DNA of 64,000 nucleotides. It comes from an uncultured Gammaproteobacteria bacterium (GTDB lineage Bacteria > Patescibacteriota > Patescibacteriia > SBBC01 > CAIJZX01). Shown here one piece after another: positions 17,503 to 62,779 of this stretch. Made by a program: the position numbers and the translations under genes. The stretch spans positions 269,415 through 333,414 of the forward strand of contig CAYNGY010000001.1 in assembly GCA_964397195.1 (NCBI GenBank), given 5' to 3'. The notes under the pieces are model-generated. The model was given only the letters and a program-made list of their open reading frames with translations, was not told the origin of the DNA and did not search any database. Position 1 is the first letter of the stretch; each line of letters opens with the position of its first letter.

Positions 17503-18531
17503 TTAAGCTTCAGTCGATCCGGCCTGAGCGTCCGGTGTCGTTGAAGGTCGACCTTTGTTTTCATGATTATTGAAACACTCGAGATCCGCCGCCCATTCCG
17601 TGAGAACAATCTCGACATCTTTTGCGGTGACTGTGGGCGTTGAATCTTCCTGTTGTTTTTGAATCGCGCGCAGACGGACTTTCGCCGCCGCTTCATCCAT
17701 GGCATCAATCGCTTTGTCCGGAAAGTGGCGGTCGGGGAGAACGGTAGCGGAACGATCGACGGCCTCGCGAATTGCGTCATCTGAAATCGTCACCCCATGA
17801 TGTTTTTCGTATCGTGACTTCAAGCCCTGCAAGATGGCGACGGTTTCCGTCGCGCTCGGCTCTTTGACGAAGACTGGTTGGAACCGTCGCTCGAGGGTTA
17901 CGTCTTTGACGATCTTCTGTTCATACTCACCCTCGGTCGTTGCGCCGATTGCCTGAAGTTCACCGCGCGCGAGCGCCGGTTTCAGAATGTCGGCCGCGTC
18001 AATCGCCCCGGTTGCTTCGCCGGCTTCGGCGAGCGTGTGTAGTTCGTCGATAAACAAAATAATATTTCGTTGTGAGGCTACAACTTCATCGAGGATGGCT
18101 TTCAGTCGTTTTTCAAATTCGCCACGATACTTTGTCCCGGCCACGAGTCCGGAAAGATCGAGCGCAAGAATGCGCTTCCCGCGGAGTGGGGAGGGGACAG
18201 TGCCAGTGGAAATCATATTTGCTAAGCCCTCGACGATCGCCGTTTTTCCGACGCCGGAATGTCCGACGAGTACGGCATTATTTTTTGTGCGTCGGGACAG
18301 GATCTCGATGACACGATCAATTTCATGTTGACGCCCAATCACCGGATCAAGTTTGCCGCTCCGTCCGAGCGCCGTTAGATCTTGCGAATAGAGACCGATG
18401 ATTGAGCCGCGCACGCGATACCGAATATTTTCGCGGAGGAGGACAACGCCGAAGACAAGAAAAATTCCGGCAAAGACAAAGAGCGCGATCCAGCCAGTCG
18501 GAGTTGAAATGAAATCAAGAAAAGCGTTCAT
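17503..18531 (-). CDS. membrane-anchored Clp/Hsp100-like AAA+ ATPase (single nucleotide-binding domain)
   Basis: 342 aa: N-terminal TM, then a ClpA/B D1-like domain ([15 protein letters not shown], Walker [10 protein letters not shown], sensor motifs); no second AAA domain. Confidence 0.8.
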
Positions 18532-20542: not shown

Positions 20543-20650
20543 AGAACGTGCCTCCATTCCTACGGTGGGAGCTGTTTCGGGACACTCTGTCCTATCATAA
20601 ATAGCGGGATTTGTCAAGACCCCGCGCCCGAAATGTGATATAATCGGTTC

Positions 20651-21121
20651 ATGGCAGAAGGCCAAATACACACACCAGAACGACCGTCATTTGCCCCACC
20701 GGAAGTTGGGCCGGTTGATATTGAATCCAAGGTCGAGCATCCGACTCCGTCCGTAGATACGACGATGGTGCATGAAGTCGTACCCATCACCCCAATCATC
20801 CCAGTCAATGCTCAGCCGATGATGGATGCGGATGGCACGACGTCGGCGCTAACGAAGCGGGTCGAAGACATCATGGTGGCCGGTCTCGCCGAGACGTATG
20901 CCCAACTTGATCCGGCCACGCAAGCCAAGTTCAAGGCTGAAGGTGAACGCACGGCCGGACTGATTTCTGATATGTTGGCCACGGCTAAGATCCACGTCAA
21001 AAAAATCGTCGATCTGCTCGTCGCCTGGTTACGCATTGTGCCGGGCGTCAATAAATACTTTCTTGAACAAGAGGCAAAAATCAAGGCCGACAAACTGTTG
21101 GCGTTAAAAAAGAAGTCATGA
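20651..21121 (+). CDS. hypothetical protein
   Basis: 156 aa; extended -10 (TGTGATATAAT) just upstream; ATGA-coupled to the next gene. Confidence 0.6.
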   Translation: MAEGQIHTPERPSFAPPEVGPVDIESKVEHPTPSVDTTMVHEVVPITPIIPVNAQPMMDADGTTSALTKRVEDIMVAGLAETYAQLDPATQAKFKAEGERTAGLISDMLATAKIHVKKIVDLLVAWLRIVPGVNKYFLEQEAKIKADKLLALKKKS

Positions 21122-23637
21122 ACCCTGATAGCGCCGAGTTTATCGATTTGAATGCGCGTCCGCTGATGATCAGTCCATGGTGGTGGGTCGCGCTCGCGAC
21201 AGTCGTCGCCTTCGTGATCGCTGTGATCGTAATTCGGTACCTGACTCACAAACTGAATCGAATTCCGCGGGCGATGGAATATGTCGTACTGCTCGTTTTA
21301 CTCCCGCGCGAAACGCTGAAACTCGAACAACAGAATAAAGATTGGCGGGATGTCTTAGCCGGGTTTGAAACGCTCTACCTGACCTTGGCCGGTGTTCGAC
21401 TCGAACATGGCGGGTCTTTCGCCAAAGCCTGGCGCCATTTTTGGTTCGGCCGCCACGATCATCTTTCACTCGAGATCGTTTCGACCAAAGGACAAATTCA
21501 ATTCTACCTCGCTGTGCCACGCGCCGTGCGCCAACTGGTTGAACTTCAGATTCAGGCGCAGTACCCGCAAGCGGACATCGAAGAAGCCGAAGACTACAAT
21601 TTGTTCGCCGCGAACTCAACTATCCGCGGAACGATGCTTCGTCTGACGAAGCCCTTCTTTTTTCCGATCCGGACGTATCGGAAGCTCGATAGCGATCCGC
21701 TCAATGCCATTACGAATGTCCTGAGCAAAGTCCAGCCGCAAGAAGGCGCGGCCATCCAGATTCTCATTCGCCCGAAATCTTCGAACTGGAATAGTCGTGG
21801 TCGGCATATTGCCCGCGCCATGCAAGAAGGGAAAACGCTCGGCGAAGCCATGGGCAAGTCCGGCGGTAATGTGTTACTGGCCTCATTAAAAACCGAAAGC
21901 GATCGGTATAAGCAACCGAAGACGCCGTACGTCACGCCGATGGACCAAGAGCTGATACGGACGATGGAGGAAAAAGCGGGGAAGCCCGGTTTTGATGCCA
22001 ACATCCGCATCGTCACAGCTTCACCACTCGCTCCGAATGCTGACGTCCACCTCGAAAATATCGTCAACGCTTTCAGTCAATTTATCGCCCCAGAGTCGGG
22101 CAATCAATTTCGTCGCACCAGCATCGTCAGCTCGAGTCAACTGATTAGCGATTTTATCTTTCGGCATTTCGAGAATGGACGCCGCCTCGTCTTGACGAGC
22201 GAGGAGCTGAATAGTATCTATCACTTCCCGCTCCCGCAGACTGAGACGCCGAATATTCAATGGCTCGCGGCCAAACAAGCCGCGGCGCCGGTCAATTTGC
22301 CGAGTGACGGAATCACGCTTGGTCATAATGTCTTCCGCGGTCACGACGCCGTGATCAAATTAAAACCGAACGATCGCCGTCGCCATGTCTACGTGATTGG
22401 GACGACCGGATCAGGAAAAACGGTACTGATGCAAGAAATGGCCAAACAGGATATTCGCAATGGCGAAGGCGTTTGTATTGTTGATCCGCACGGGAGTTTT
22501 GTCGACGACGTCTTGCCCTGCATTCCGCCGTCGCGCATGCATGACGTCATTCTGTTTGATCCGTCGGATGTCGATCGGCCGATGGGGCTCAATATGCTCG
22601 AGGCTCGCTCACCGGAAGAGCGTGACTTTGCCGTCCAGGAGATGATTGCCATCTTCATGAAACTGTTCCCGCCGGAAATGATCGGGCCGATGTTTGAACA
22701 CAACATGCGGAACGCGATGTTGACGCTGATGGAAGACGACGAACATCCGGGAACGATTGCGGATATCCCGCGCATGTTCACCGATAAAACATTCCAGCAA
22801 TACAAAATTTCGAAAGTGAAAGACCCGGTCGTTCGGGCGTTCTGGGAGAAAGAGATGGCGAAGACGAGCGATTTCCATAAATCCGAAATGCTCGGCTACC
22901 TAATTTCAAAGGTTGGGCGATTTATTGAGAACTCGATGATGCGTAACATCATCGGACAACCAAAATCAGGGTTCAATTTTCGGGCGGTCATGGACGAACG
23001 CAAAATCTTGTTGGTGAATCTCTCGAAAGGAAAAATTGGCGAAGTCAACGCGGCGCTGCTCGGGCTAATCATCGTTTCGAAATTGCAGATGGCTGCCCTT
23101 GGTCGGGCGAACGTCACCGAACTAAATCGGCCGGATTTCTTCCTCTATATTGATGAGTTCCAAAACTTTATTACCGATTCAATTGCGACAATTCTATCGG
23201 AGGCCCGAAAATATAAATTGAATCTGACCATGGCCCATCAATATATGGGGCAACTCGTCCAGGGCACAGACACGCGAGTGCGGGATGCGGTGCTCGGCAA
23301 CGTGGGGACAATGGTCGCCTTCCGAATTGGTGTCGAAGATGCGGAAGTGCTTGATAAACAATTTGCTCCGACTTTTACGGCTTTCGATTTGGTCAACCAG
23401 CAGCGCTTTACCGCGTACGTTCGTCTCCTAATCGATAATACGGCCGCGCCGCCGTTTCATATGCAGACCTACCCATCCACGATTGGCCAGACGACGGTGG
23501 GTGAGGCGATCAAACAATACTCGCGCCTGCGCTACGGGAAAGGCCGCGCCGTGGTCGAGGCCGAAATTCTTGAGCGGACAAAGTTGGGCACCGTCACCGC
23601 GGGCGCGACGCCACTCCCACCAGAACCGTCTCGCTGA
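21118..23637 (+). CDS. VirD4/TraG/TraD-like type IV coupling protein family ATPase (membrane-anchored)
   Basis: 839 aa, N-terminal TM, Walker A GTTGSGKT, Walker B FLYIDEFQNF, overall T4CP-like architecture. Confidence 0.8.
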   Translation: MNPDSAEFIDLNARPLMISPWWWVALATVVAFVIAVIVIRYLTHKLNRIPRAMEYVVLLVLLPRETLKLEQQNKDWRDVLAGFETLYLTLAGVRLEHGGSFAKAWRHFWFGRHDHLSLEIVSTKGQIQFYLAVPRAVRQLVELQIQAQYPQADIEEAEDYNLFAANSTIRGTMLRLTKPFFFPIRTYRKLDSDPLNAITNVLSKVQPQEGAAIQILIRPKSSNWNSRGRHIARAMQEGKTLGEAMGKSGGNVLLASLKTESDRYKQPKTPYVTPMDQELIRTMEEKAGKPGFDANIRIVTASPLAPNADVHLENIVNAFSQFIAPESGNQFRRTSIVSSSQLISDFIFRHFENGRRLVLTSEELNSIYHFPLPQTETPNIQWLAAKQAAAPVNLPSDGITLGHNVFRGHDAVIKLKPNDRRRHVYVIGTTGSGKTVLMQEMAKQDIRNGEGVCIVDPHGSFVDDVLPCIPPSRMHDVILFDPSDVDRPMGLNMLEARSPEERDFAVQEMIAIFMKLFPPEMIGPMFEHNMRNAMLTLMEDDEHPGTIADIPRMFTDKTFQQYKISKVKDPVVRAFWEKEMAKTSDFHKSEMLGYLISKVGRFIENSMMRNIIGQPKSGFNFRAVMDERKILLVNLSKGKIGEVNAALLGLIIVSKLQMAALGRANVTELNRPDFFLYIDEFQNFITDSIATILSEARKYKLNLTMAHQYMGQLVQGTDTRVRDAVLGNVGTMVAFRIGVEDAEVLDKQFAPTFTAFDLVNQQRFTAYVRLLIDNTAAPPFHMQTYPSTIGQTTVGEAIKQYSRLRYGKGRAVVEAEILERTKLGTVTAGATPLPPEPSR

Positions 23638-24197
23638 TGTCGGTCTGGATTGAGGCCGGTTTGGGCCTGGTCATTTTAGCCATTGTTGGCACAGCGGCCT
23701 GGGCCGGCTGGAAAGCGGCGCCATTTTTTCCGACCGCCGGTCGGGACGTCAATCGACTGCTTGATGTTGCCGGCGTGACGGCCGAAGACACAGTGATAGA
23801 TCTCGGTTGCGGTGATGGACGGATGCTCTTTGCGGCCGCCGCTCGCGGTGCAAGGGCCATCGGCTATGAGATCTCACTCGTGCCGTACCTGGTGGCAAAA
23901 GGGCGATGGTTCTTTTCGCCGGTTCGTTCGCGCGTCCAGGTGCGCTTGAAAAGTTTCTGGCTGGCCGATCTTTCCTCGGCCACCGTGCTGGTGGCGTTTC
24001 TGCTCCCGCGGTCTATGTCCGAGGTCGCCCGTCGGCTCGCTCCGGGTTTACGGCCGGGGACGAAAATTGTTTCATATGCCTTTCCTATTGCCGAGTGGGA
24101 GCCGATCCGTCGCGATAAGCCCGATCCGACCCGTCTGCCCATTTGGGTATATGCCACACCCGTGACTGGCGCTTCGGCCGCCCCTAGCGCGCATTGA
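23637..24197 (+). CDS. class I SAM-dependent methyltransferase (membrane-anchored)
   Basis: 186 aa, motif I VIDLGCGDG; start overlaps the upstream stop. Confidence 0.75.
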   Translation: MSVWIEAGLGLVILAIVGTAAWAGWKAAPFFPTAGRDVNRLLDVAGVTAEDTVIDLGCGDGRMLFAAAARGARAIGYEISLVPYLVAKGRWFFSPVRSRVQVRLKSFWLADLSSATVLVAFLLPRSMSEVARRLAPGLRPGTKIVSYAFPIAEWEPIRRDKPDPTRLPIWVYATPVTGASAAPSAH

Positions 24198-24277: not shown

Positions 24278-24907
24278 ATGGACGACCTCACGAACCAGCT
24301 CCCTGATGACACTACATCCACCACTGACGCAGTGGAGCATCCAACGCATGAATCAGTAGACCCGGCTGCCATCAGCCAGGCATTTGAGGCAATCCAACGT
24401 GAGCTCGACAACCTCAAGGCGATGGTCTACGGACTATCGGCGCCATTATCATTGCCGGATCGAGGCCGTCTCGTCACGACACCGACGCCGGTCGATCGCG
24501 AGGGAGCTCGCGTCATTGAAGGGATTTTTGACGGCCAAAATATGACCGCTCCGGACGGGAAGCAATACTCCGTGCCGGCGAACTACGCCTCCAAATCGAA
24601 GCTCGTCGAGGGCGACACGTTAAAACTCACGATTACCCGGGACGGATCATTTATCTACAAGCAGATTGGACCAATCGAGCGACAGCGTGTGATCGGTCGG
24701 TTGGTGCGCGATGATATGACCGGTGAGTTCCGCGTTGACGCCGCCGGGAAACAATACAAGGCACTCCTCGCATCCATTACGTATTTCAAGGGCGAAGCGG
24801 GTGATGAAGTCGTTATTCTCCTCCCGGAGACCGGCGAAGCGCGCTGGGCGGCGGTCGAGAATATCATCAAAAAGACCTATACTGATTCCGGATTGCTCGG
24901 GATTTAG
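24278..24907 (+). CDS. hypothetical protein
   Basis: 209 aa, acidic N-terminus, no recognizable motif. Confidence 0.55.
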   Translation: MDDLTNQLPDDTTSTTDAVEHPTHESVDPAAISQAFEAIQRELDNLKAMVYGLSAPLSLPDRGRLVTTPTPVDREGARVIEGIFDGQNMTAPDGKQYSVPANYASKSKLVEGDTLKLTITRDGSFIYKQIGPIERQRVIGRLVRDDMTGEFRVDAAGKQYKALLASITYFKGEAGDEVVILLPETGEARWAAVENIIKKTYTDSGLLGI

Positions 24908-24961
24908 GCGGCCTTGCTCGGGGAGCGCCAGTAGCGTACACTGGTGACGCACACGCGTCCC

Positions 24962-26614
24962 ATGGCCGAAACACTTTATCGAAAATACCGTCCCCAGTCG
25001 TTTGCCGATGTTGTCGGCCAGCGGCATATTCGCGTTACGCTTGAGCACGCGCTCCAAACGGACCGGGTTGCCCACGCCTACATGTTTACCGGACCCCGCG
25101 GCGTCGGGAAGACCACGACCGCCAGAATCCTGGCCCGGGCCGTGAATTGCGAGAAGCGTGGGCAGAACATTGAGCCATGTAATGCCTGTCCGTCATGTTT
25201 GGCCATCCTCCACAATCAAACCTTGGATCTGATTGAGATCGACGCGGCCTCGCAAACCGGCGTCGATAACGTTCGTGACAATATTATTCAGGGGGCACGA
25301 ATGGCACCGGTCATCTTGAAGCAGAAGATCTTCATTATTGATGAGGTCCACATGTTGTCGCTGGCGGCATTTAATGCTCTGCTGAAGATTCTCGAAGAAC
25401 CGCCGGCTCATGTCATGTTTATCTTGGCCACAACGGAGATTCACCGTGTCCCGGAAACGATTATCTCGCGGACGCAGCGTTTCGATTTCCAACGAGTTGG
25501 CTTCGATGACACCGTCCAACGTATTATCAGCGTCGCCCGACAAGAAAAGCGGTCGCTTGGTCGCGGAGTGGCTGAACGGATCGCCCGCGCCTCTGGCGGA
25601 AGTTTGCGCGATGCGGAAAGTATTCTCGGTCAAGTTCTGGCCTTCCCGGATACAGATGTGACGATCGAGCTTCTGAATATGATCATGCCGCGGAGCGATC
25701 AAACCACCGTTCTGAATATGATCGAGGCTATTTTACCGGGCCGAGCGGCCGAGGCGATTCAGTATTTTCATCAATTCGTGGCCGATGGTGGCGACGTGAC
25801 GACCTGCGTTCAAGACGTGTTAACAATGACCCGGCACCTGCTTCTTTTAGTAACGGATCCGGATGGCATGCTGAGCGCCATGAAGTCGCTCGATCCGACG
25901 ACATTGGAACGCTTACGACATATGGCCAGCAACGCCGACCAAGAACGGTGTCTCCGTATTATTGATACCTTTACCGAAGCGGTGCGTCAGGTGGCCTACG
26001 CCACCATCGAAGAGTTACCGGTCGAAGTGGCGATTGTCCGTGCCAGTGGCATCGATCAATCGGGGTCAGTACCGGCCACCCTGACTGGCGGCGTGGAACA
26101 GGCCGCACCCACACGAACAATCCCACGTCCAGCCACGCCGAAGAAAGCCGACGCTACTCCTTCCGAGCAGACGCAGCCGATCAAGGCGGCGACGAAACGG
26201 ACAGCCGCCGTCACTCTCGAGCAATTCCAGCAGGCGTGGCGCGCGCTGCAACAATCCTCATCACTCCCGCCGGGCTTAGCCCTCTCGGTCAAGCAGGCGA
26301 GTGTCACCGCTATGAATGGAGAACTTATCGAACTAACCGTGCCATTTGCTCTCCACGCGGATCGTTTAAACAGTGCCAAGAATCTGGAACTCATTCGTCA
26401 GTATATCGCGCCCGAATACGCGGACTACACCTTCCGGGCCCTCGTCGATTCTTCACTCGCTCCGGCCGATTTACCACCGCGCGAAGAGCCGACTATGTCA
26501 GCCACATCAACCGCTAAGCCAGTCACGACCACTCCGGCGCTCGTCGTGTCACCAGTTGCGGTCACGACCGGCGATGAGTTATGGGACAACCTCGTCGCCT
26601 CACTTGATTCATAG
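24962..26614 (+). CDS. dnaX: DNA polymerase III subunit gamma/tau
   Basis: AAA+ clamp-loader motifs (GPRGVGKTT, zinc module CNACPSC, DEVHML), Pro/Thr-rich C-terminus; start chosen at MAETLYRKYRP. Confidence 0.9.
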   Translation: MAETLYRKYRPQSFADVVGQRHIRVTLEHALQTDRVAHAYMFTGPRGVGKTTTARILARAVNCEKRGQNIEPCNACPSCLAILHNQTLDLIEIDAASQTGVDNVRDNIIQGARMAPVILKQKIFIIDEVHMLSLAAFNALLKILEEPPAHVMFILATTEIHRVPETIISRTQRFDFQRVGFDDTVQRIISVARQEKRSLGRGVAERIARASGGSLRDAESILGQVLAFPDTDVTIELLNMIMPRSDQTTVLNMIEAILPGRAAEAIQYFHQFVADGGDVTTCVQDVLTMTRHLLLLVTDPDGMLSAMKSLDPTTLERLRHMASNADQERCLRIIDTFTEAVRQVAYATIEELPVEVAIVRASGIDQSGSVPATLTGGVEQAAPTRTIPRPATPKKADATPSEQTQPIKAATKRTAAVTLEQFQQAWRALQQSSSLPPGLALSVKQASVTAMNGELIELTVPFALHADRLNSAKNLELIRQYIAPEYADYTFRALVDSSLAPADLPPREEPTMSATSTAKPVTTTPALVVSPVAVTTGDELWDNLVASLDS

Positions 26615-31184: not shown

Positions 31185-31246
31185 CGCGGTTGTCCGCAAC
31201 CCAGGTCCAGTCACTGGCCGTGGGTTTCTGGTATACTCTTGAAATG

Positions 31247-31594
31247 AGCACCAGCGCCCGGACCGTGGAGTACATTACGGAACAGATCAGCACGGCCGGC
31301 GATGTTCGGTATCGAAAAATGTTTGGAGAGTATGCGCTGTACTGTGATGATAAGGTGGTGGCGCTCGTCTGCGATGATCAGCTGTACCTCAAGCCGACCG
31401 CGCCGGGGCGAACATATCTCCAGGAGGTTGATGCGGCGCCCCCGTATCCCGGTGCGAAAATATATTATCGAATTAGCGAGGACCGTTGGGATGATCGCGA
31501 GTGGATGACGACCGTCGTGAAACTGACCGCCGCCGCACTGCCGCTTCCCGCGACCAAGAAGACCCGACGTCCATCGCCCCCCAATACCGCCTAA
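31247..31594 (+). CDS. TfoX/Sxy N-terminal domain protein (competence-associated)
   Basis: MFGEYALYCDDKVVALVCDDQLYLK matches the TfoX_N signature; start could also be 31190. Confidence 0.7.
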   Translation, partial: STSARTVEYITEQISTAGDVRYRKMFGEYALYCDDKVVALVCDDQLYLKPTAPGRTYLQEVDAAPPYPGAKIYYRISEDRWDDREWMTTVVKLTAAALPLPATKKTRRPSPPNTA

Positions 31595-35406: not shown

Positions 35407-36972
35407 ATGACCCAAGACACCGCCCTGGCGATCCTCACGACCGGCCGCAACGTCTTCCTGACCGGTGAACCCGGCTCGGGTAAGACGTATTTGGTGAACG
35501 CCTACGTCGAGTATCTTCGCGCCCACCACATCACCGTAGCCATCACCGCCTCAACCGGCATCGCCGCCACGCACATTTCCGGGGTAACCATTCACTCGTG
35601 GAGCGGCGTCGGAATCCGTGACCGCCTATCAAAAACCGATCTCGAGATCATTACGACGACCGACCGTCTCGCCAAGCAAATCTCCGGAACGGATGTCTTG
35701 ATCATCGACGAAATATCTATGCTCGATGCGTCCGTCCTGGAGATGGTTGATGAGGTTTGCAAATCCATTCGCCGCTCGGCTGAACCCTTCGGTGGCTTGC
35801 AGGTAGTTCTGGTCGGAGATTTTTTTCAGTTACCGCCGGTCTCACGTCCGGGTGACGAACCGGCGCGTTTTGCCTTTACCAGTCCGGTTTGGACCGAAGC
35901 GATGTTTGATGTCTGCTATCTGACCGAACAACACCGTCAATCCGACGCCGCCCTGACGAGCGTTCTGGCGGCGATTCGTGGTGGCCAACACTCCGATGAA
36001 GCAATGGCTCATCTCGACTCCCGTCGCGTCACGTATGACGCCGACGATCATGGCGCCACGAAACTCTATAGCCACAACGCTAATGTCGATGAGGTCAACG
36101 CCGAGAAACTCGAAAAACTTCCCGGCGATGTTCATGTCTTCGAGATGTCCCATCACGGCCCGCGTCATAAAATTGAAGCCTTAACCCGCGGCTGTCTGTC
36201 GCCGGAACGCTTGGAACTCAAAAAGGGCGCAGCGGTGATCTGCACCCGAAACAATCCGGAAAAAGGATTCGTCAATGGCACGTTGGCGACCGTGGTGGAT
36301 TTTGCCAAGACGGACGGCTATCCGATTGTCGAGACGCGTGATCGTCGACGCATCACGGTCGAACCAATGGATTGGGCAATTGATGAAGGGGAGAAGGGCG
36401 GCGCCCGGATTACCCAAGTCCCGCTCCGCCTCGCTTGGGCGATCACGGTGCACAAGAGCCAAGGAATGTCGCTCGATGCGGCGGTCATGGATTTGTCCCG
36501 TTCATTCGCGTTTGGGCAGGGTTACGTCGCGCTCTCGCGCGTCCGTTCACTCGATGGACTCTTCTTACTCGGGTGGAACAACCGTGCCTTGCTCGTTGAT
36601 CCGATTATTCAAGATCAAGACCGCGTCATGCGTGAACAGTCAGCCCAAGCTGAGCAGTCATGGGCGGCGCGGACCGCCGACGCCCGACGCGAACAACAAG
36701 AAGACTTCATCCGGCGCGCCGGCGGGGTCATCCATCCGAAAGTCTCGACCCACGTGCCGGGGGAAGTTATTGATGTCCCGCCACACGCCAAGCGACTTGA
36801 GGAGATTCGGAAGACCTATCCGCGCGCCTACACGCCGTGGAGTGATGACGACGATCAAGCCATTGCCGAACTCCATGCGAAAGACCTGCCGATGCGCGAG
36901 CTGGCCAAGCGCCTCGAGCGCCATCCGGGCGGGATTCGTTCGCGTCTCAAAAAACTCGGGTTGGTGCAGTAG
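35407..36972 (+). CDS. PIF1/RecD-like ATP-dependent DNA helicase
   Basis: 521 aa, Walker A GEPGSGKT, Walker B LIIDEISML, SF1B motifs, unusual basic C-terminal extension. Confidence 0.85.
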   Translation: MTQDTALAILTTGRNVFLTGEPGSGKTYLVNAYVEYLRAHHITVAITASTGIAATHISGVTIHSWSGVGIRDRLSKTDLEIITTTDRLAKQISGTDVLIIDEISMLDASVLEMVDEVCKSIRRSAEPFGGLQVVLVGDFFQLPPVSRPGDEPARFAFTSPVWTEAMFDVCYLTEQHRQSDAALTSVLAAIRGGQHSDEAMAHLDSRRVTYDADDHGATKLYSHNANVDEVNAEKLEKLPGDVHVFEMSHHGPRHKIEALTRGCLSPERLELKKGAAVICTRNNPEKGFVNGTLATVVDFAKTDGYPIVETRDRRRITVEPMDWAIDEGEKGGARITQVPLRLAWAITVHKSQGMSLDAAVMDLSRSFAFGQGYVALSRVRSLDGLFLLGWNNRALLVDPIIQDQDRVMREQSAQAEQSWAARTADARREQQEDFIRRAGGVIHPKVSTHVPGEVIDVPPHAKRLEEIRKTYPRAYTPWSDDDDQAIAELHAKDLPMRELAKRLERHPGGIRSRLKKLGLVQ

Positions 36973-39255: not shown

Positions 39256-40059
39256 ATGGCTACAAAAAAGGTAAAGGAATTTCGGTATTTCGACCAACCC
39301 GATTTTCGGCTGTATAAGGGTGATTGTATTGAAGTTCTCAATGGTCTAAAAGAAAACTATTTTGATATGATCTTCGCCGATCCGCCGTACATGTTATCGA
39401 ACGGTGGGTTTACGGTTCACGCTGGAAAACGCGTCAGCGTAAATAAAGGAAAATGGGATGAAAGCAAGGGGGCAAAAGAAGATTTTGAGTTTCACGAAAA
39501 ATGGATTGCAGCCTGTCGCCGAGTCCTCAAACCCGATGGCACTATTTGGATTAGTGGGACCTATCATTCAATATATGCCTGTGGGTTCGCACTTCAACTG
39601 CAGGGTTTCAAGATCCTTAATGACATCGCTTGGTTTAAGCCCAACGCGAGTCCGAACTTGAGTGGCAGGTATTTTACCGCTAGTCATGAAACTTTGATCT
39701 GGGCGAGGAAGGATCCAAAGGCGAAGCATACCTTCAATTATAAGCTAATGAAAACCGGCGACTGGAACGGTGATTTTCTGAAGAATCCAGGCAAACAAAT
39801 GCGGAGTGTTTGGGCAATCGGGACGCCCAAGGCGGCTGAAAAGACTTTCGGGAAACACCCGACGCAAAAATCTTTAGCATTACTAGAGCGCATTGTTCTG
39901 GCTTCAACCAACAAAGGGGCGAGAATTCTTGATCCATTTTCGGGAAGCTCAACGACTGGGATAGCGGCCGTGAAACATGGTCGGGAGTTTGTTGGGGTTG
40001 ATATTGACCATAAATTTTTATCACTTTCAAAAATGCGTTATCAAGCCGAGAAAGGTTAA
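39256..40059 (+). CDS. type II DNA methyltransferase, beta-class N6-adenine/N4-cytosine (DPPY)
   Basis: 267 aa; motif IV DPPY precedes motif I LDPFSGSSTTG (beta-class order); AT-rich segment. Confidence 0.85.
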   Translation: MATKKVKEFRYFDQPDFRLYKGDCIEVLNGLKENYFDMIFADPPYMLSNGGFTVHAGKRVSVNKGKWDESKGAKEDFEFHEKWIAACRRVLKPDGTIWISGTYHSIYACGFALQLQGFKILNDIAWFKPNASPNLSGRYFTASHETLIWARKDPKAKHTFNYKLMKTGDWNGDFLKNPGKQMRSVWAIGTPKAAEKTFGKHPTQKSLALLERIVLASTNKGARILDPFSGSSTTGIAAVKHGREFVGVDIDHKFLSLSKMRYQAEKG

Positions 40060-40063
40060 TATT

Positions 40064-40546
40064 ATGTCTGCCACGTACGCCGCCGCTCAAGGGTCGGTTC
40101 TCGAACAGCAGGTTCGCAGTGTTCTCGGACAAAAAGGATTTCAACTGGAAAGATACTCGGCCTGGTTGAAGAACCCAATGATCGGGGACGAATTGTTGCT
40201 TACAAATGCGCCATTCACAACCATCTACAAGCATTCCGGACATACGGAGTTCTTGTTAGTATCAAAGAAATATAACATCCATACACGAATCGAATGTAAA
40301 TGGCAGCAATCCGCAGGCTCAGTGGACGAGAAGCTGCCGTATCTTTACCTGAACGCAATTGAACAAATGCCGGAAGAAGATATTATTATTCTTATTGATG
40401 GAAAAGGTTGGAAGCCGGGCGCAATACAATGGCTTAAGGATGCGATCCGTGAGAAAAAATATGTTGTTGGTATTACAAAAACCAAGAACATCCAGGTATT
40501 AGATCTGCAGGGATTCATTGCGTGGGCTAACAAGACATTCCGGTAG
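40064..40546 (+). CDS. putative type II restriction endonuclease (PD-(D/E)XK-like)
   Basis: About 160 aa directly after the MTase on the same strand in the AT-rich island; candidate E-x-K in TRIECKWQQ; no other detectable similarity, as usual for REases. Confidence 0.5.
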   Translation: MSATYAAAQGSVLEQQVRSVLGQKGFQLERYSAWLKNPMIGDELLLTNAPFTTIYKHSGHTEFLLVSKKYNIHTRIECKWQQSAGSVDEKLPYLYLNAIEQMPEEDIIILIDGKGWKPGAIQWLKDAIREKKYVVGITKTKNIQVLDLQGFIAWANKTFR

Positions 40547-42033: not shown

Positions 42034-44409
42034 CTAGACGTCGAGCGGATTCGGAACCGACGTTTGCGGAACGGCCTCGCTGAGGAGCTGGAGATGGAAG
42101 GCATGCGCGTCGCCGCGTTTGCGAACTTTGTTCCAGAGCGGAGTGGCACCCTCAATGGCTTTGATCACGCTGCGCCAGACAACCAAGGCGATCACAATCC
42201 GGTAGAAGATACGTTGGAGTGGGAGGAGGACAATCAGCCAGCGTTTCCCGCGCTCCGGATATAAGGCGAGACCGGCGTAGAGCAGGTCAATCGCGGTAAA
42301 AATCAGGTAGACAATGAAAGCCGATTGACCGGAACCGGTGATGATCGCGAGGATGAGCAGGAAGTCCATCAGTGGGACGAGGAGCGAGATCAAAACGGTA
42401 AAGATCAAGGTATTCGGGAGGACAACCCAGCCCAGTGCCGGTCGCTCAAAGCTCAAAAAGTGGCGTTTGTATTTCCACAGGCACTGGACCGTGCCGAAAA
42501 TCCATCGCGAGCGTTGCTTAATAAAATCCTTCAGGTGGAACGGCGTTTCGCTGTAGGCATAGGCTTGCGACTCATAGACGATGCGATGGCCGGCGGCGAG
42601 GAGCGCCAAGGTCAGGTCCTGGTCTTCGACGAGTGTATCGAGACTGAAACCCCCGGCGGCTAGGACGAATGAACGGCGCCAGGCCCCAACCGGTCCGGGC
42701 ACGACGCCGATAGCGTTTATTTCATTAAAGGCGCGCTTGTCCATGTTCTGCGTGATGATGTACTCGGCCGACTGGAAGACGTTGAGAATATTTCGCGACC
42801 GCGTAGCGCAGACGCGACCAGCCACGGCCGCTACGGACGGATCATGAAAATGACGAACGAGGCGGGCGATGGTGTACCGATCAAAAATAGTGTCGCCATC
42901 CATGAAGACGATCACCTCGGTCTTGGCTAAATGTAAACTATGGTTTAATGCACGGGCCTTGCCGCCGTTTTTCAGGTTGACGAGGCGAACACGTCGGTCA
43001 TGGCGGTCCTTGATGATTCCTCGGACAATCTCGGCGGTCTTGTCTTTCGAGCCGTCGTTGACGACCAAGATCTTGAGGTGTTCGTAGGTACTATTGAGGA
43101 CGCTGGTAATCGTCGCGCCGATATTATCTTCCTCGTTGTAGGCGGGAATGACGACGGTGACCGGCTTGGTCCAGGCCGACGGCCGAGCGTACCCATTGAC
43201 GGCAGCCACGCCGCGGAAGAGCAGGGTCATGATCAACCGTACGAGTACTAACAAGATGACGATCCGGGTGATCCAAATAACCGTCGTGGCAATCGCCGGC
43301 GCGAGGCTAATGTAGACGCGTGACGCATCAGAGAAGAGGAAGACCGTATTCGTTTGGTGGGAAGGGAGCGGTTGGTACATGGTGGCCGTAATCGCATCGG
43401 CGATTGACATCCGAGTGGTCCGGTCGACCACGCGTTTGGTATCCGGGAGATTGTGTGTGACCTGCCAGTCGACGACGGCGGCTTGCGTCGATGCGCCGTA
43501 GGTCCCGCCACGGTCAACAATCGAATAGCCGCTCATAATCATGAATTGCTGCAGGGCGGTGACGGAGCCGTCAGTTTTCGCATCGGTCGCGCCGGGTACG
43601 AGATCTTGGGTGATCGCCATTTTTTTGGCCGCATCGAGGCCGAGGAGGTCTGAAGCGGTGGTGAACCGATACCCACGGGCGCGAAGCTCGTGGATTATGT
43701 CGGTCAGCGCGGCGATCGTATAGCGTTCGCTGCTCCCATCGTGCAAGAGAATGATATGCCCGCCACCCTTCATCTTTTCCAGCAAGGCGTCAACATTCTG
43801 TTTCGGAGAGGTCGCGACCCAATCTTTCGGGTCGACGTCTGCGCCGACAACCACGTACCCATTTTGCAGGGCCCAGTACAATTGCGGTTGCGATCCCGTC
43901 GGGGCGGTGGTAGGGTCGCTGCCAATATCGAGGAGATATGGGGGCCGGTAGAGCCGGATCGGTTGGCGGGTAATCGTTTCAATGATCGTATCGGTCAGGT
44001 TGAGCTCGAGTCGTAACCGCCAGTTTGAAGACTGGGCTGTTTGGGAGTGCGTGAAGCTGTGATTGCCGATTTCAAAGCCGTTCTCGGCCGCTTTTTTAAC
44101 AAGGGCCGGGTAACGCAGCGCCCGCGAGCCAATAAAAAAGAAGGTGGCCGGAACCTGCTCTCGTTTTAGCACGTCCATGATCGCTTCGGTGCGACCGGGC
44201 GAAGGGCCGTCATCAAAAGTCAGCGCCACGACCTTCGCGGCGCCGACATTATTGTAGTAATAGTTAATATTGACCTGCGCTGGTGGTCGATTGCTCGTCA
44301 GGAGGCCATAACTGAAATCGGCGACGAGAAAGATACTCAGGGCCAAAACAACGCCAACGATTCCACGAAAGATGAACTTACGAAAACGTCGCTGATTATG
44401 GAAAATCAT
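42034..44409 (-). CDS. bifunctional polysaccharide deacetylase (NodB/PgaB-like) / family-2 glycosyltransferase (PgaC/IcaA-like synthase)
   Basis: N-terminal TM, NodB motifs (TFDDGP, HSFTHS), a PG-binding-like segment, then a GT2 domain (VIPAYNEE, DGDT, QRSRW-type QxxRW) with C-terminal TMs. Confidence 0.8.
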   Translation of the reverse strand: MIFHNQRRFRKFIFRGIVGVVLALSIFLVADFSYGLLTSNRPPAQVNINYYYNNVGAAKVVALTFDDGPSPGRTEAIMDVLKREQVPATFFFIGSRALRYPALVKKAAENGFEIGNHSFTHSQTAQSSNWRLRLELNLTDTIIETITRQPIRLYRPPYLLDIGSDPTTAPTGSQPQLYWALQNGYVVVGADVDPKDWVATSPKQNVDALLEKMKGGGHIILLHDGSSERYTIAALTDIIHELRARGYRFTTASDLLGLDAAKKMAITQDLVPGATDAKTDGSVTALQQFMIMSGYSIVDRGGTYGASTQAAVVDWQVTHNLPDTKRVVDRTTRMSIADAITATMYQPLPSHQTNTVFLFSDASRVYISLAPAIATTVIWITRIVILLVLVRLIMTLLFRGVAAVNGYARPSAWTKPVTVVIPAYNEEDNIGATITSVLNSTYEHLKILVVNDGSKDKTAEIVRGIIKDRHDRRVRLVNLKNGGKARALNHSLHLAKTEVIVFMDGDTIFDRYTIARLVRHFHDPSVAAVAGRVCATRSRNILNVFQSAEYIITQNMDKRAFNEINAIGVVPGPVGAWRRSFVLAAGGFSLDTLVEDQDLTLALLAAGHRIVYESQAYAYSETPFHLKDFIKQRSRWIFGTVQCLWKYKRHFLSFERPALGWVVLPNTLIFTVLISLLVPLMDFLLILAIITGSGQSAFIVYLIFTAIDLLYAGLALYPERGKRWLIVLLPLQRIFYRIVIALVVWRSVIKAIEGATPLWNKVRKRGDAHAFHLQLLSEAVPQTSVPNPLDV

Positions 44410-44776
44410 GGGGGAAAATCTTTGGCGGTGACAAGGACTCGACTGTGCGGGCCGCAATTTTCCCTGTATTTAGCTCCGGTGTCAAGTTCGTTTGGATGGT
44501 CAAGTTGGGGACAAGTTTTTTGGCCACAACCAAAAGGGCAAATGGAACAATTCATCCCCAACTTATTTGTTGACAGGGGAGCCGGCCATATGGTTAGCTA
44601 ATATCCGCGCAATTCGTAAAGACCGAAAAGAAAACGATCCTTTCCCATTGTCTGGACCTCAACGGAACGTCATGCGTTTAGGAGGATCTATGAGAACCGT
44701 CCCATTTCGGCGGTCCTTTTTTCGGTATTTTCACTCGTCGTATATTATCTGGTCATAAAAAAATAATTCCATCATT

Positions 44777-47700
44777 ATGCAGAGCAAGTTCTCAATCGGC
44801 TGGAGAGTGCCGAACCGAAAAACCACCCGCCAGCGTTCGTGGCGCACCCTAAATGCGATCGTGGCGGTCTCGGTATTGGTCAACGTCTGTGGCTTTGGCC
44901 TGTTTGGGGCACCACAAGCGGCCGCGGCGCTTGATTCGGGTGCGATTGCGCCGAACCAGACACTGGTGTCGAATGCGGTCACCAGCCCAGATAATGCGTG
45001 GGTTTCCGACAATAATCGTGCCATATTTGGTGCCAGCACCGACACGGCAGATTATGGCTTCGCGAATATCGGCGTGCCGGTTGGCGCCACGATCACTGGT
45101 ATTCAGGTGACGTTGGAAGGGTTGCATTCATCGGGGTTTAACGCGCGTACCCTTACGACAGCACTTTGGAATACGTCGGGGAGCACACCGGACGCGTACA
45201 CGACGGTAAAAACAGCCTCGTCGATGTCGACGAGCTCAAACGACAACGTCAGCACGTTGGGTGGCGCGTCTGATCTGTGGGGCAAAACATGGACCGATGC
45301 TGACTTTGCCAGTGGTACCTTCAAATTGCGGATTGGTGTCAGCGGCTCCAACGGCAGCGCCCAACTCGATCAAGTACTGATCAAAGTGTATTTTACACCG
45401 GCCTGTGCATTAGCTACCCAGGGCAACCAGGTGAGTAACGGCGATTTTGAGATCGCCAGCGGCGATCCAACACTGCCGATGGACTGGGTGCCCGGCTACT
45501 TCGACCCCCTCAATATTACGCCAACCTTTACCTATCCGGTGGCCGGTAACCCTGGCAAGGCGGCGAACGTTCAAGTTTCTGCCTACACGGCGGCTTCTGG
45601 TGAAGAGGCGAAGTGGCTCTTTACCCCGGTCACGACCTGCCCGGGCAAAACGTTTGATATTTCCATCGGCTACACCTCAAACGTTCTGACGAGCGTCTGG
45701 GTGGCGTACCAAATGTCGAATGGAACGACGCCGAATCCAGAATGGGTCGCTGATGCGCCGGCCAGTGCGGCGTGGTCCACCGTGACAGGTCAAATAACCA
45801 TTCCGGCCGGAGTCGCGAGCTTTCAGGTCTTCCAGTCGCTGGCCGCCGTCGGTTCGCTAACGATTGATGCCGTCTCGGTCAAACCGCTCGTGCCGTTCCC
45901 CGAAGGGATGGTGACGCTCAATTTCGATGATACCTTCGCGAGCCAATATACCGTCGCCCCGCCAATCCTCAGCGCCGCGAACCTGAAGGCCAGCTTCTTC
46001 GCGATCACCGATTCGTCCGTTGGTATCGGATCGGACAGCAACTATATGACCTGGGCGAATGTGGCGGCACTGAATGCAGCTGGCCATGAAATCGGTGCTC
46101 ACACTCGGACGCACCCCGACTTAAGTCTCCTGACACCAGAACAGGCGCAGATTGAAATTGCTGGCTCGAAGACGGATTTAGTAAATCACGGTCTGACGCC
46201 AACCACCTTTGTGTATCCGTATGGCGTCTATAACGCCGCCATCATCCAGATGGTCAAAGATGCTGGATTCACGAGCGCCCGAAGCGTGGTTCGTGGTTTC
46301 AACTACCGAACATCGAATAAGTACGCCCTCCTTGATCAGCAAATCATCAACACGACCACGGTCGCCGAAGTTCAAGGTTGGATTGATCAAGCCAAAGCCA
46401 ATAAAACGTGGCTGATTCTTGAGCTCCATGAGCAGACCTCGACACCGGGTCCTGACACTGGCGTGTACTACAACACACCGACGCGATTGCAGGAAATCGT
46501 CACCGCGATTAAGAATAGCGGCATCAAGGTGGTGACGCAATCCGAGGGGACGACCTTAATCAATCCGGTGATCACGGTGGCGCCGTACGTGTTGACGCCA
46601 ACGAATCAAGATATCACCGTGACCGCCACGACAGATTCGGGCACGCTCAACGCGACGTCGCACCTATTTACTGCTAATGGATCGTTTGATTTTATCGCGA
46701 CGGATGAGAACGGGAATTCGACGACAAAAACGGTCACCATTACCAATATCGATAAGGTTGCGCCGGTGGTGACTATTGCGCCGTACACATTGACGCCGAC
46801 CAATCAAGACATCACCGTCGCGGCCAGCACAAACGAGGGGACGCTGAATACCACCTCACATGTCTTTACGGTCAATAGCGCTTTCGACTTCATCGCGACC
46901 GATGCAGCCGGGAATGTGACCACCCAGGCCGTGACCGTGACGAACATTGATAAAACAGCGCCGATTATTACGCTCGATCCTTACAATACGGCGCTGACGA
47001 ATAGCGATATTACCGTCACGGCGCATACGAATGAAGGAACGCTCAATGTGGCCTCGCACACGTTCACGCTGAACGGCTCGTTTGATTTCGTGGCGACTGA
47101 TGCAGCCGGGAATGTGACCACCCAGACCGTGACGATCAATAATATCGATCGCATCGCGCCCGCTGGCACCATCTCGTACAACACCACGGCGCCGACCAAT
47201 GGCCACGTCGTGGCCACCCTGCTCCCAAACAAGTCCGTGACCGTGACGAATAACGGTGGCTTGTTCACCCATGTGTTCACCACGAACGGGAGCTTTACGT
47301 TCACCTTCGTCGATGAGGCAAATAATACCGGATCGGCGATGGCGATTGTCTCAAACATTGATACGACCGCCCCGGTCATCACATTGACGCCATACAATAC
47401 CGCCCCGACAAATACTGATATCACGGTCTTTGCCACGACAAACGAGGGCTCACTCAACGCGACGGCACATACGTTTAGTGCGAACGGCGCCTTCACCTTC
47501 GTGGCGACGGATGCGGCCGGTAATAGCACGTCTCAGGCGGTGACGATCAGCAATCTGAACAAGGTCAAGCCGGTGATCACCCTGATCGGGTCAGCTACCA
47601 TCACTCTGACAAAAGGCGCGGCCTATAGCGATGCTGGCGCGACGGCGACTGATGATGTCGATGGCGATATCTCGATCAAGATGACGGCTGAGAACTCGGT

Positions 47701-62718: not shown

Positions 62719-62779
62719 GGCACTCTCCTTGTCGTTAGGTTGGGCGCGCTGGCGATGAAGCCAGCGCGCCCAACGGTGA

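Follow-up and report, generated by a model that had tools for sequence, protein, structure and literature searches.

What does a VirD4-type coupling protein (T4CP) do in a genome where nothing around it belongs to a conjugation system? The question is raised by a gene for an 839-aa ATPase in a 64-kb stretch of DNA (hereafter the window) from a Patescibacteria (CPR), Kerfeldbacteria-like genome. Patescibacteria depend on their hosts for a supply of nucleotides, lipids and amino acids. In the single species in which this was examined their T4SS is essential, and its gene cluster has no coupling protein. A recent survey (Quinonero-Coronel et al. 2025, PMC12102498) found that 2,918 of 3,035 Patescibacteria genomes have T4CP homologues, 5,713 in all and about two per genome; only 148 of these homologues lie near virB4, and relaxases occur in only 103 of the genomes. 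The gene family has already been reported, and our discovery is modest since orphan T4CPs in the phylum are published. The window gene is almost certainly one of them: like those orphans it matches a VirD4-family HMM, is chromosomal and lies away from virB4 with no relaxase. In its accessible part, the published account does not include the DUF8128 N-domain, the constant small partner and the hyper-conserved all-alpha domain described below, nor the cysS...dnaX synteny or a specific non-CPR sister group, and on exaptation it goes no further than leaving it possible (PMC12102498). Here we define a near-universal orphan coupling-protein subfamily by its domain anatomy, its sole constant partner and its conjugative sister group. 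With roughly even confidence, we regard the ATPase as a domesticated T4CP of monoderm/archaeal lineage, of the DUF8128 subfamily, that serves a T4SS encoded elsewhere.

Domain anatomy of the ATPase

The features of the gene are as follows.

21118..23637, + strand: the 839-aa DUF8128-T4CP ATPase, a membrane-anchored homologue of VirD4/TrwB-family coupling proteins
21175..21255, + strand: predicted single N-terminal transmembrane (TM) helix, residues 20-46 (structure model)
21280..22227, + strand: DUF8128 (PF26449) alpha/beta N-domain, residues ~55-370 (PF26449 on homologues; model)
22312..23487, + strand: RecA-like NTPase domain of the VirB4/VirD4/HerA clade, residues ~399-790 (motifs, fold matches)
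22399-22422, + strand: Walker A, GTTGSGKT, residues 428-435
22612..22953, + strand: seven-helix all-alpha insert, residues 499-612 (model; position of the TrwB all-alpha domain)
23152-23157, + strand: Walker B, ...YIDEF, D679-E680

A sequence-only reading of the window had called the protein a VirD4/TraG-like ATPase and proposed a domain search, which bears this out: T4SS-DNA_transf (PF02534; 30.6 bits, cutoff 20.1), TraG-D_C (PF12696; 25.1 bits, cutoff 22) and TrwB_AAD_bind (PF10412; 38 bits, cutoff 20.5) all exceed their Pfam gathering thresholds, with matches in residues ~400-750. The Walker A and B NTPase motifs are intact, as in a T4CP, and G428, G431, G433, K434, D679 and E680 are invariant across 35 homologues. 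In the monomer model the insert is placed between Walker A and Walker B and consists of helices 499-516, 525-539, 547-555, 557-565, 570-582, 585-604 and 606-612; the PF10412 alignment covers the same region. The protein is thus a VirD4/TraG-like ATPase with a TrwB-type all-alpha insert.

The amino-terminal half departs from this pattern. Canonical T4CPs typically have two TM helices and no DUF8128, whereas the model of the window protein shows one long helix followed by the ~320-aa DUF8128 region, mostly with pLDDT >85 and with a disordered loop at 248-268. A basic stretch, RYLTHKLNR, directly follows the helix and suggests, by the positive-inside rule, that the remainder of the protein is cytoplasmic. 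PF26449 is precomputed on P0001, a database protein of 100% identity, as well as on all 120 homologues among the matches listed; the domain is present in 2,251 cluster representatives at E<=1e-3, always N-terminal, and it has no match among PDB sequences.

Equivalog models for TraD, VirD4 and CD1115 in NCBIfam did not recognise the protein (best 48.9 bits against a cutoff of 366, TIGR03743; the others far under their cutoffs). An identity as VirB4 was rejected: TIGR00929 gives 18.9 bits where its cutoff is 643 and matches only the P-loop, the DUF8128 profile aligns with the VirB4-type N-region at an hhalign probability of 2%, and the structural resemblance to VirB4/TrwK is not specific. Identification as an FtsK/SpoIIIE DNA translocase fared no better, as neither a PF01580 match above threshold nor an FtsK-like fold was found.

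Conservation and chromosomal setting

A homologue search matched at least 596 species representatives, and identity stays at 50-80% among Kerfeld-, Falkow-, Uhr-, Magasanik-, Doudna- and Komeilibacteria and others. Conservation is unevenly distributed: it is lowest in the TM region (majority fraction 0.33), reaches 0.72-0.79 in the catalytic core and peaks at 0.89 in the all-alpha insert, where 59 of 114 columns are invariant. The all-alpha domain of canonical T4CPs is usually variable; here it is, by contrast, the most conserved region of the family.

The gene keeps its place in the order DnaJ-Dus-CysS-AAA-CorA...DnaX across many CPR lineages, and GC content is unremarkable and composition uniform. 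That no other conjugation genes are in view, as the sequence-only reading had it, holds well beyond the locus itself. T4SS, relaxase, pilin and com genes were not detected in the window, and in 166 related CPR loci no T4SS, relaxase, pilus or com gene was found up to about 8 kb from the ATPase. That homologues from different orders share 50-80% identity argues for vertical inheritance under strong constraint. In Patescibacteria the ATPase gene is probably a vertically inherited, strongly constrained chromosomal gene, and it stands outside any conjugation cluster.

A constant small partner upstream

20636..20644, + strand: extended -10 promoter-like element, TGATATAAT
20651..21121, + strand: small partner protein, 156 aa, ORF directly upstream of the ATPase

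The 156-aa protein has no Pfam, NCBIfam, PADLOC or PDB match. Judged from its sequence, the N-terminal ~65 residues are Pro/Glu/Val-rich and apparently disordered, and the C-terminal ~90 residues are apparently helical and end in the conserved motif IVPGVNKYFLEQEAKIKADKLLAL. Homologues at 40-45% identity lie directly upstream of the ATPase on the same strand in 63 of 77 related loci by tblastn, and abut it in 59 of the 77 by HMM; in Wolfebacteria-like loci a different small protein takes this position (73 of 80). The upstream small protein is the sole constant partner of the ATPase.

Both gene junctions of the ATPase, as read from the letters, are overlaps: ATGA (4 nt) with the upstream gene, at GTCATGAAC, and TGATG (1 nt) with the downstream methyltransferase gene, at CGCTGATGTCG. 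Translational coupling on both sides, as first proposed, is plausible on account of these overlaps. The promoter-like element TGATATAAT ends 6 nt before the ATG at 20651 with no Shine-Dalgarno between, so that a transcript starting there may be leaderless; it is not listed in a consensus promoter scan because it has no -35 hexamer at standard spacing.

The downstream genes form a separate block

23637..24197, + strand: class I SAM methyltransferase (MTase), 186 aa, membrane-anchored, aKMT-related (homology)
24278..24907, + strand: g209, 209 aa, with two tandem OB-fold (S1/cold-shock-like) barrels after a helix at residues 29-51
24944..26614, + strand: dnaX, DNA polymerase III gamma/tau subunit (identified through homologous neighbours)
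31190-31594: TfoX_N protein, 134-aa ORF (E 4.3e-21)

The sequence-only reading had joined the 156-aa gene, the ATPase and the MTase into one operon and linked it to the TfoX N-domain protein as candidate DNA-uptake machinery. All three ORFs lie at the positions that it gave and are real genes with thousands of homologues; the operon does not hold as a functional unit. The MTase is membrane-anchored as described: a hydrophobic helix stands at its N-terminus, and its core is that of a class I SAM-MTase. It is related to archaeal aKMT protein-lysine methyltransferases, with PDB matches to 5fa8, 5bxy and 5jwj (E 1e-19 to 1e-18) and clear homology to the aKMT structures 5fa8 and 5jwj; NF041081 of NCBIfam matches at E 2.8e-18 (66.4 bits, cutoff 200), and the (D/N)PP(Y/F) motif is absent from its sequence. 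Of 60 related loci, only 16 have the gene. In 5 of these it is separated from the ATPase by inserted genes, and in 15 it lies 15-275 nt from g209, with dnaX after g209.

The g209 protein is predicted to bind single-stranded nucleic acid. In the ABY1-like lineage its gene directly precedes dnaX, and in 51-53 of 60-62 loci it is found downstream of the ATPase. The gene is more closely associated with dnaX and the MTase than with the ATPase, and Wolfebacteria-like genomes do not have it at the ATPase locus. The dnaX gene, whose homologues among the neighbours carry DNA_pol3_delta2, AAA and DNA_pol3_gamma3 domains, is the downstream anchor of the conserved synteny, found on that side of the ATPase in 53-54 of 60-62 loci. 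MTase, g209 and dnaX are accordingly a neighbouring, separately conserved block that is only locally compacted against the ATPase in the present genome, and the MTase, as a member of this block, is a facultative neighbour of the ATPase.

A TfoX N-domain protein is indeed present; the position 31247 first cited for it is an ATG at codon 20 of the ORF. It lies 7 kb from the ATPase, past dnaX, a terminator-like hairpin and a tRNA gene, and in none of 83 related loci is a TfoX_N homologue found closer than 8 kb to the ATPase. The 134-aa ORF has TfoX_N without a C-terminal TfoX domain. A competence system controlled by TfoX/Sxy was rejected on these grounds and because the window has no com or pilus genes; the TfoX_N protein is unrelated to the ATPase. 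Three misleading associations of the ATPase are thereby removed: TfoX, the methyltransferase and, as set out below, a MADS-like defence.

Conjugative relatives outside the CPR

A tblastn search of plasmids returned 38 records that span at least 80% of the 839-aa protein at 24-29% identity, and the nearest non-CPR relatives, in both domains, are coupling proteins in conjugation clusters. T4CPs containing DUF8128 are found in actinobacterial and Firmicutes conjugation clusters. An example is WP_331738717.1 from a plasmid of Embleya sp. NBC_00896 (812 against 839 aa; blastp E 5e-76, 28.7% identity over residues 105-786), which likewise consists of a TM region, DUF8128 and a T4CP ATPase. Its gene belongs to a full monoderm T4SS cluster, where it is flanked by the genes of a Replic_Relax protein and a VirB4/TraC-type ATPase; the cluster also encodes PrgI, a TrbL-like protein and an NlpC/P60+SLT hydrolase. 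The CPR gene has no such neighbours and has the small helical partner upstream instead. The separate VirB4-type ATPase alongside the DUF8128 protein in this cluster again sets the two families apart.

In haloarchaea a DUF8128 ORF and an ATPase are located in pilin-containing clusters. On a megaplasmid of Halorussus limi both modules are homologous to those of the window protein and stand in the same order, though as two overlapping ORFs: a free-standing 376-aa DUF8128 ORF and a 'TraM recognition domain' ATPase of about 1,000 aa (WP_248653158.1 / WP_248653266.1; N-domain E 1e-21, ATPase E 6e-36). The cluster includes a pilin and a second large TraM-recognition ATPase. The well-known T4CPs are more distant: with TrwB (R388), VirD4, Cagbeta and DotL, the P-loop region alone shows detectable similarity in sequence (E 3.8e-4), and the P-loop of TrwB aligns with that of the window ATPase.

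A T4CP is expected to be encoded with a T4SS and/or relaxase, which is the case for the non-CPR relatives and not for the CPR gene; no homologue of the Embleya or Halorussus conjugation genes was found in 167 CPR sequences totalling 2.36 Mb. The sequence-only reading had set against its own proposal a clustering with conjugative plasmid T4CPs and the presence of relaxase or T4SS genes nearby: on the first point, the nearest relatives outside CPR are conjugative coupling proteins on plasmids; on the second, no such genes lie nearby in CPR, so that its condition holds by half. The conjugative relatives of the ATPase fit the MPF-FATA ancestry published for the Patescibacteria T4SS (PMC12102498).

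A proposed domesticated coupling ATPase

The reading that we favour begins with a coupling protein of Gram-positive/archaeal conjugation systems that would have carried DUF8128 between anchor and motor. By analogy with TrwB and VirD4, its descendant probably forms a membrane-anchored hexameric ring. The all-alpha domain may bind one conserved ligand, given that its 59 invariant columns of 114 are the highest share in the protein, and the small upstream protein could be an adaptor or regulator, much as CagZ is on Cagbeta. The motor would then feed or energise a Patescibacteria T4SS that is encoded elsewhere and has no coupling protein itself. The essential T4SS cluster of S. epibionticum has no recognisable coupling protein (PMC10633639), and the DUF8128-T4CP is a concrete, testable candidate for this missing component.

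Some observations count against such a T4SS motor. T4SS genes are absent from the ATPase locus, and the virB4 loci of ABY1 are found in other places, close to comF, recG and radA (PMC12102498). In S. epibionticum a T4CP homologue, of the DUF8128 type or another, is non-essential by Tn-seq, whereas the T4SS genes are essential (PMC12102498). T4CP homologues occur in more genomes than VirB4 (2,918 against 2,417; PMC12102498), so that their role could be T4SS-independent, a comparison that is confounded by MAG incompleteness.

Alternative roles

Import of nucleic acid is the strongest of the alternatives and in our view unlikely: the ATPase would draw host or environmental DNA or RNA into the cell, through a T4SS/pilus or alone, and g209 would receive the single strand. 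VirB4/HerA-clade ATPases of the archaeal Ced systems can drive DNA import, and CedB, the membrane-associated ATPase of the crenarchaeal system, belongs to the same broad clade as the window ATPase; its similarity (E 1.6e-3), like that of CedD (5.5e-7), is a weak P-loop match far under cutoffs, and no CedA-like channel protein lies near the ATPase. The hyper-conserved all-alpha domain is what a generic ligand such as nucleic acid would lead one to expect, and the tandem OB-fold g209 is close by in most ABY1-like loci, although g209 tracks dnaX and the MTase more than the ATPase and is missing at the Wolfebacteria-like ATPase locus. Uptake of host RNA is described for a cultivated Patescibacterium, and T4SS pili are the suspected route (bioRxiv 10.64898/2026.06.21.733656); ABY1 virB4 loci co-localise with comF, recG and radA (PMC12102498). 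Against import stand the absence of channel, pilus and com genes from the window and the related loci, the 0 of 83 loci with linked TfoX_N, and the place of the nearest characterisable relatives in export (conjugation) clusters. Competence as demonstrated in Saccharibacteria, in the one Patescibacterium studied by genetics, needs type IV pili and ComEC (PMC12857230, citing Wang 2023). Coupling-protein homologues of episymbionts had been said to have been proposed as DNA importers; we found no paper that proposes this for Patescibacteria T4CP homologues, and a DNA-uptake role for the ATPase is unsupported. We give still less credence to the fuller version, in which the DUF8128-T4CP and its small partner would together be the missing cytoplasmic motor and pull host RNA or DNA inward, via a T4SS/pilus or independently, with the all-alpha domain binding nucleic acid and the ABY1 g209 receiving the strand. 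If true, transport would run opposite to that by the conjugative coupling protein from which the ATPase descends.

A function in chromosome replication or segregation is very improbable; here the membrane-anchored ring ATPase, together with g209 and DnaX, would act like FtsK/SpoIIIE or anchor the replisome. It draws on the ATPase-(MTase)-g209-dnaX order on one strand in most ABY1-like loci, the predicted ssDNA/RNA binding of g209 and the conservation of the ATPase at the level of housekeeping genes.

Very improbable, too, is an active coupling protein that exports DNA for an integrated element (an ICE or plasmid remnant). The Pfam T4CP domains and the closest non-CPR relatives, in conjugation clusters beside a Replic_Relax protein, would agree with it, but the window and the 166 related loci have no relaxase, VirB4, VirB6, integrase or oriT-type context, relaxases are rare in the phylum (103 of 3,035 genomes; PMC12102498), composition is uniform, the position between cysS and dnaX is constant across many CPR lineages, and the identity across orders points to strongly constrained vertical descent.

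Hardly credible is a MADS-like methylation-associated defence against phage DNA, for which a PADLOC scan offers a mad8-like match of the ATPase (4e-20) and a mad2-like match of the adjacent MTase (7.6e-12) and none for the other two scanned genes: the hallmark mad6 and mad7 are absent, though the published model requires all of mad6-8 (bioRxiv 10.1101/2023.03.30.534895), the MTase, which stays with g209-dnaX rather than the ATPase, has no N6-adenine DNA MTase motif and is closer to the protein-lysine aKMTs (E 1.6e-19), the single-copy ATPase gene, with its fixed housekeeping synteny and 50-80% identity, is unlike a defence island, and the window has a conventional R-M pair at another place (39256-40546).

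Gene organisation around the ATPase

The 839-aa ATPase (DUF8128-T4CP; T4CP, type IV coupling protein of the VirD4/TrwB type) lies among the following features, and the ORF listing agrees exactly, in coordinates, with the first three ORFs as the sequence-only reading had drawn them:

20651-21121, +: ORF of the small protein, 156 aa
21118-23637, +: ORF of the ATPase, 839 aa
23637-24197, +: ORF of a SAM methyltransferase (MTase), 186 aa
24278-24907, +: ORF of g209, 209 aa, on the same strand downstream of the MTase
24944-26614, +: ORF of dnaX, downstream of g209
after dnaX, +: ORF of 163 aa
27174-27196: strong terminator-like hairpin, preceding tRNA-Gln

Read from the sequence, the small-protein and ATPase genes meet in an ATGA junction and the ATPase and MTase genes in TGATG, and a sequence scan places a promoter-like site in the 80-nt gap before g209. 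Upstream, an extended -10-like element, TGATATAAT (window 20636-20651), stops 6 nt short of the ATG of the 156-aa gene, and no Shine-Dalgarno sequence could be read between this element and the first ATG; the arrangement suggests that the first gene of the unit may be expressed from a leaderless mRNA.

The window genes were compared with 83 related loci of the ABY1-like lineage. In 59-63 of the 77 loci with enough flank, the gene of the small protein immediately precedes that of the ATPase on the same strand, and in the remaining 14 a different, acidic ORF of ~130 aa abuts the ATPase gene. Downstream of the ATPase, g209 was found in 51-53 and dnaX in 53-54 of 60-62 loci, and the MTase in only 16-17. 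Where present, the MTase lies 15-275 nt from g209 (15 of 16 loci), and in 5 of the 16 (e.g. L002, L167 and L168) it is separated from the ATPase by 2.7-4.8 kb of other genes; one locus, L166, carries the MTase-g209-dnaX block without an ATPase gene within 6 kb upstream. In the 80 Wolfebacteria-like loci (L086-L165), g209, dnaX and the MTase are not found near the ATPase, and in 73 the gene just before that of the ATPase, on the same strand, encodes a different protein of ~135 aa (e.g. L091, 1679-2086). Like the 156-aa protein, it appears to combine a low-complexity N-terminal half with a helical-looking C-terminal part; it contains the motif PPFILDAYHDALTDKLHEEL, a similar form of which occurs in the Torokbacteria locus L081, and may be either a diverged homologue of the 156-aa protein or an unrelated substitute. 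Precomputed annotations record no Pfam domain on homologues of the 156-aa protein.

From the neighbour counts across both sets of loci we therefore conclude that the functional unit consists of the small protein and the ATPase; the MTase, g209 and dnaX form a neighbouring block that is locally packed against it in this genome. The coupled operon proposed earlier stands as far as its ATGA and TGATG junctions are concerned, but its MTase is only an optional neighbour. The idea that g209 partners the ATPase specifically is weakened, this gene being tied to dnaX and the MTase and absent from the Wolfebacteria-like ATPase loci. The TfoX_N gene at 31247, which had been linked to the ATPase as part of a candidate DNA-uptake machinery, is real (E 4.3e-21) but occurs in none of the 83 related loci, and the link falls.

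Architecture of the ATPase

Residues ~400-750 match three Pfam T4CP families (TrwB_AAD_bind, T4SS-DNA_transf and TraG-D_C), in every case with a score over the gathering threshold, in keeping with the original description as a VirD4/TraG-like ATPase; scores against the NCBIfam equivalogs for TraD and VirD4 fall far under their cutoffs. Precomputed annotation places PF26449 (DUF8128) at the N-terminus of the identical database protein and of all listed homologues. An AlphaFold model built on 35 homologues (mean pLDDT 81) places a single TM helix at residues 20-46 and an alpha/beta domain at ~55-370, followed by a RecA-like NTPase (~399-790) into which seven helices (499-612) are inserted. Neither Walker A (GTTGSGKT) nor Walker B (D679-E680) varies. 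Conservation peaks in the all-alpha insert, with 59 of 114 columns invariant and a majority fraction of 0.89, against 0.72-0.79 in the catalytic core and 0.57 in DUF8128. The top Foldseek matches of the model are full-length TrwK/VirB4 (~930 columns aligned), followed by TrwB. Because the DUF8128 profile shows no sequence-level relationship to a VirB4-type N-region and no sequence match to any PDB chain, the VirB4-like layout of the model is taken as an unconfirmed hint.

Distribution and ancestry

The ATPase belongs to a very large family, with more than 2,218 close relatives scored; the best 120 show 53-100% identity over nearly full length, and at least 596 GTDB species representatives carry two exact signature peptides of the family. 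The best named homologues among the database matches are from Candidatus Kerfeldbacteria, Uhrbacteria and the 'Patescibacteria group'. The DUF8128 region alone matches 2,251 representatives of clusters formed at 50% identity, in which it is always N-terminal, complete proteins measuring ~800-860 aa; one distant representative, from Candidatus Wolfebacteria, is 28% identical over the N-region. Many GenBank TPA_asm MAG records with the gene specific to Patescibacteria (CPR) in CPR-type synteny are titled 'uncultured Gammaproteobacteria bacterium' (L004, L006, L015, L021 and others), and further such titles read 'Methanosarcinales archaeon', 'Binatia' and 'Acidobacteriaceae'; such titles seem to be placeholders or the result of mis-binning rather than occurrences outside CPR.

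A tblastn search against plasmids returned 38 records from outside CPR (Streptomyces/Embleya, Priestia and many haloarchaea) with at least 80% coverage of the protein at 24-29% identity, and the DUF8128 part alone is present on 35 records. The Embleya homologue (E 5e-76 over residues 105-786) lies inside a typical monoderm conjugation cluster, which encodes a TrbL-like protein, PrgI, a VirB4/TraC-type ATPase, the DUF8128-T4CP, a Replic_Relax protein (E 2.7e-36) and an NlpC/P60+SLT hydrolase. In Halorussus, an ORF of 376 aa that overlaps the start of the ATPase gene encodes DUF8128 on its own, in a cluster that also holds a pilin and a second large ATPase. Because these relatives sit in such clusters, the ancestor of the CPR gene was a particular T4CP subtype belonging to conjugation systems of monoderms and archaea, in agreement with the MPF-FATA ancestry of Patescibacteria T4SS given in a published survey (PMC12102498).

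A Rosetta-stone search by Pfam scan found no fused extra domains in 12 DUF8128 proteins of 1,045-2,006 aa. The five long tails inspected are of low complexity, four being Pro/Ala-rich (P0348, P0346, P0324 and P0311) and that of P0325 Ser/Gln/Pro-rich, and a 'PPIGAPPV' motif recurs in P0348, P0346 and P0324. The long Pro-rich tails may serve as linear-motif docking tails and are loosely comparable with the C-terminal tail of TraD, which binds TraM.

The methyltransferase and g209

The MTase is a TM-anchored class I enzyme clearly homologous to archaeal protein-lysine methyltransferases (aKMT; PDB 5fa8 and 5jwj, E ~1e-19); its match to NF041081 (2.8e-18) is under the cutoff, and the (D/N)PP(Y/F) motif is absent from its sequence. 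The g209 family is very large (>7,891 members) and without Pfam annotation. It comprises tandem OB-fold (S1/cold-shock-like) proteins with a nearly invariant core of ~120 aa, encoded immediately upstream of dnaX with gaps down to 2-31 nt and often preceded by a TM-anchored aKMT-like methyltransferase. A possible role for g209 is that of a replisome-associated factor, specific to CPR, that binds ssDNA/RNA; it might also be a substrate of the MTase.

Possible functions of the ATPase unit

The window is chromosomal DNA of a Patescibacterium, with a ribosomal-protein/SecY block, DnaJ, Dus, CysS, an AAA+ protein, DnaX, pyruvate kinase and similar genes, and an even GC content of ~0.54-0.60. Domain and homology scans, a pilin-motif scan and tblastn with conjugation genes revealed no T4SS, relaxase, type IV pilin or com genes in these 64 kb, over which the early remark that no other conjugation genes are visible holds; pilin motifs and conjugation-gene homologues were likewise absent from the related loci.

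The survey of Quinonero-Coronel et al. (PMC12102498) counts 5,713 VirD4-type T4CP homologues in 2,918 of 3,035 Patescibacteria genomes, only 148 of them near virB4, and relaxases in only 103 genomes; it further describes ABY1 virB4 loci near comF, recG and radA, reports the T4CP homologue of Southlakia epibionticum to be non-essential in Tn-seq, and states that T4CP exaptation 'cannot be ruled out'. The essential T4SS cluster of S. epibionticum has also been described as having no recognisable coupling and relaxase proteins (Wang et al., PMC10633639). The ATPase is a further member of this published class of orphan T4CP homologues, to which we add the DUF8128 subtype, the constant small partner, the conjugative sister group and the hyper-conserved all-alpha domain; a literature search for the name DUF8128 returned no papers.

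We see about an even chance that the ATPase is a domesticated coupling protein, presumably hexameric, that would most probably serve a T4SS encoded elsewhere in the genome; the small helical protein would be its adaptor or regulator, and the invariant all-alpha domain would bind one conserved ligand. Any substrate and direction of transport are putative.

A nucleic-acid import motor strikes us as unlikely. A cultivated Patescibacterium does take up host RNA, with T4SS pili suspected as the route (2026 preprint 10.64898/2026.06.21.733656); competence in S. epibionticum needs T4P and ComEC, according to a review (PMC12857230). The sequence-only reading was sound in its observations of ORFs and domains and is partly supported in its interpretation. 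The weight of the finding as a discovery is moderate to low, and would be higher only if import were proven.

A replication or segregation factor and an active conjugative element are both very improbable.

A defence role in a methylation-associated defence system (MADS) was rejected because of the genes present, the kind of MTase and the way the ATPase is conserved, and we give it hardly any credence: the PADLOC hits are mad8 for the ATPase (4e-20) and mad2 for the MTase (7.6e-12), but MADS requires mad6-8 and an N6-adenine DNA methyltransferase (bioRxiv 10.1101/2023.03.30.534895), mad6 and mad7 are missing, the MTase is an optional neighbour of aKMT type, and the ATPase gene belongs to the fixed and highly conserved core. 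The matches are read as shared ancestry within the VirD4/DptH/HerA clade, not as defence function.

Other genes of the window

17503-18531, -: 342-aa protein, N-terminal TM helix and a single Clp/Hsp100-type AAA+ module (AAA + AAA_lid_9)
35407-36972, +: PIF1-family helicase (E 1.8e-38)
39256-40546, +: conventional type II restriction-modification pair, N6_N4 DNA methylase (E 2.8e-55) overlapping a PD-(D/E)XK nuclease gene (PDDEXK_11, E 1.3e-49)
42034-48394: divergently oriented large envelope genes
61348-62841, -: radical SAM/SPASM-domain enzyme, 497 aa

The 342-aa AAA+ protein is truncated relative to ClpB/ClpC, and its synteny is kept in other CPR genomes (L001 and L002). PIF1-family helicases are uncommon in bacteria, and the surroundings of this one are otherwise housekeeping. 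One envelope protein, of 807 aa, fuses a polysaccharide deacetylase to a family-2 glycosyltransferase; the other, of 1,205 aa, carries both a polysaccharide deacetylase domain and a bacterial surface Ig-like domain. The pair suggests a locus for exopolysaccharide synthesis and modification. The radical SAM/SPASM enzyme is possibly of the peptide-maturase type.
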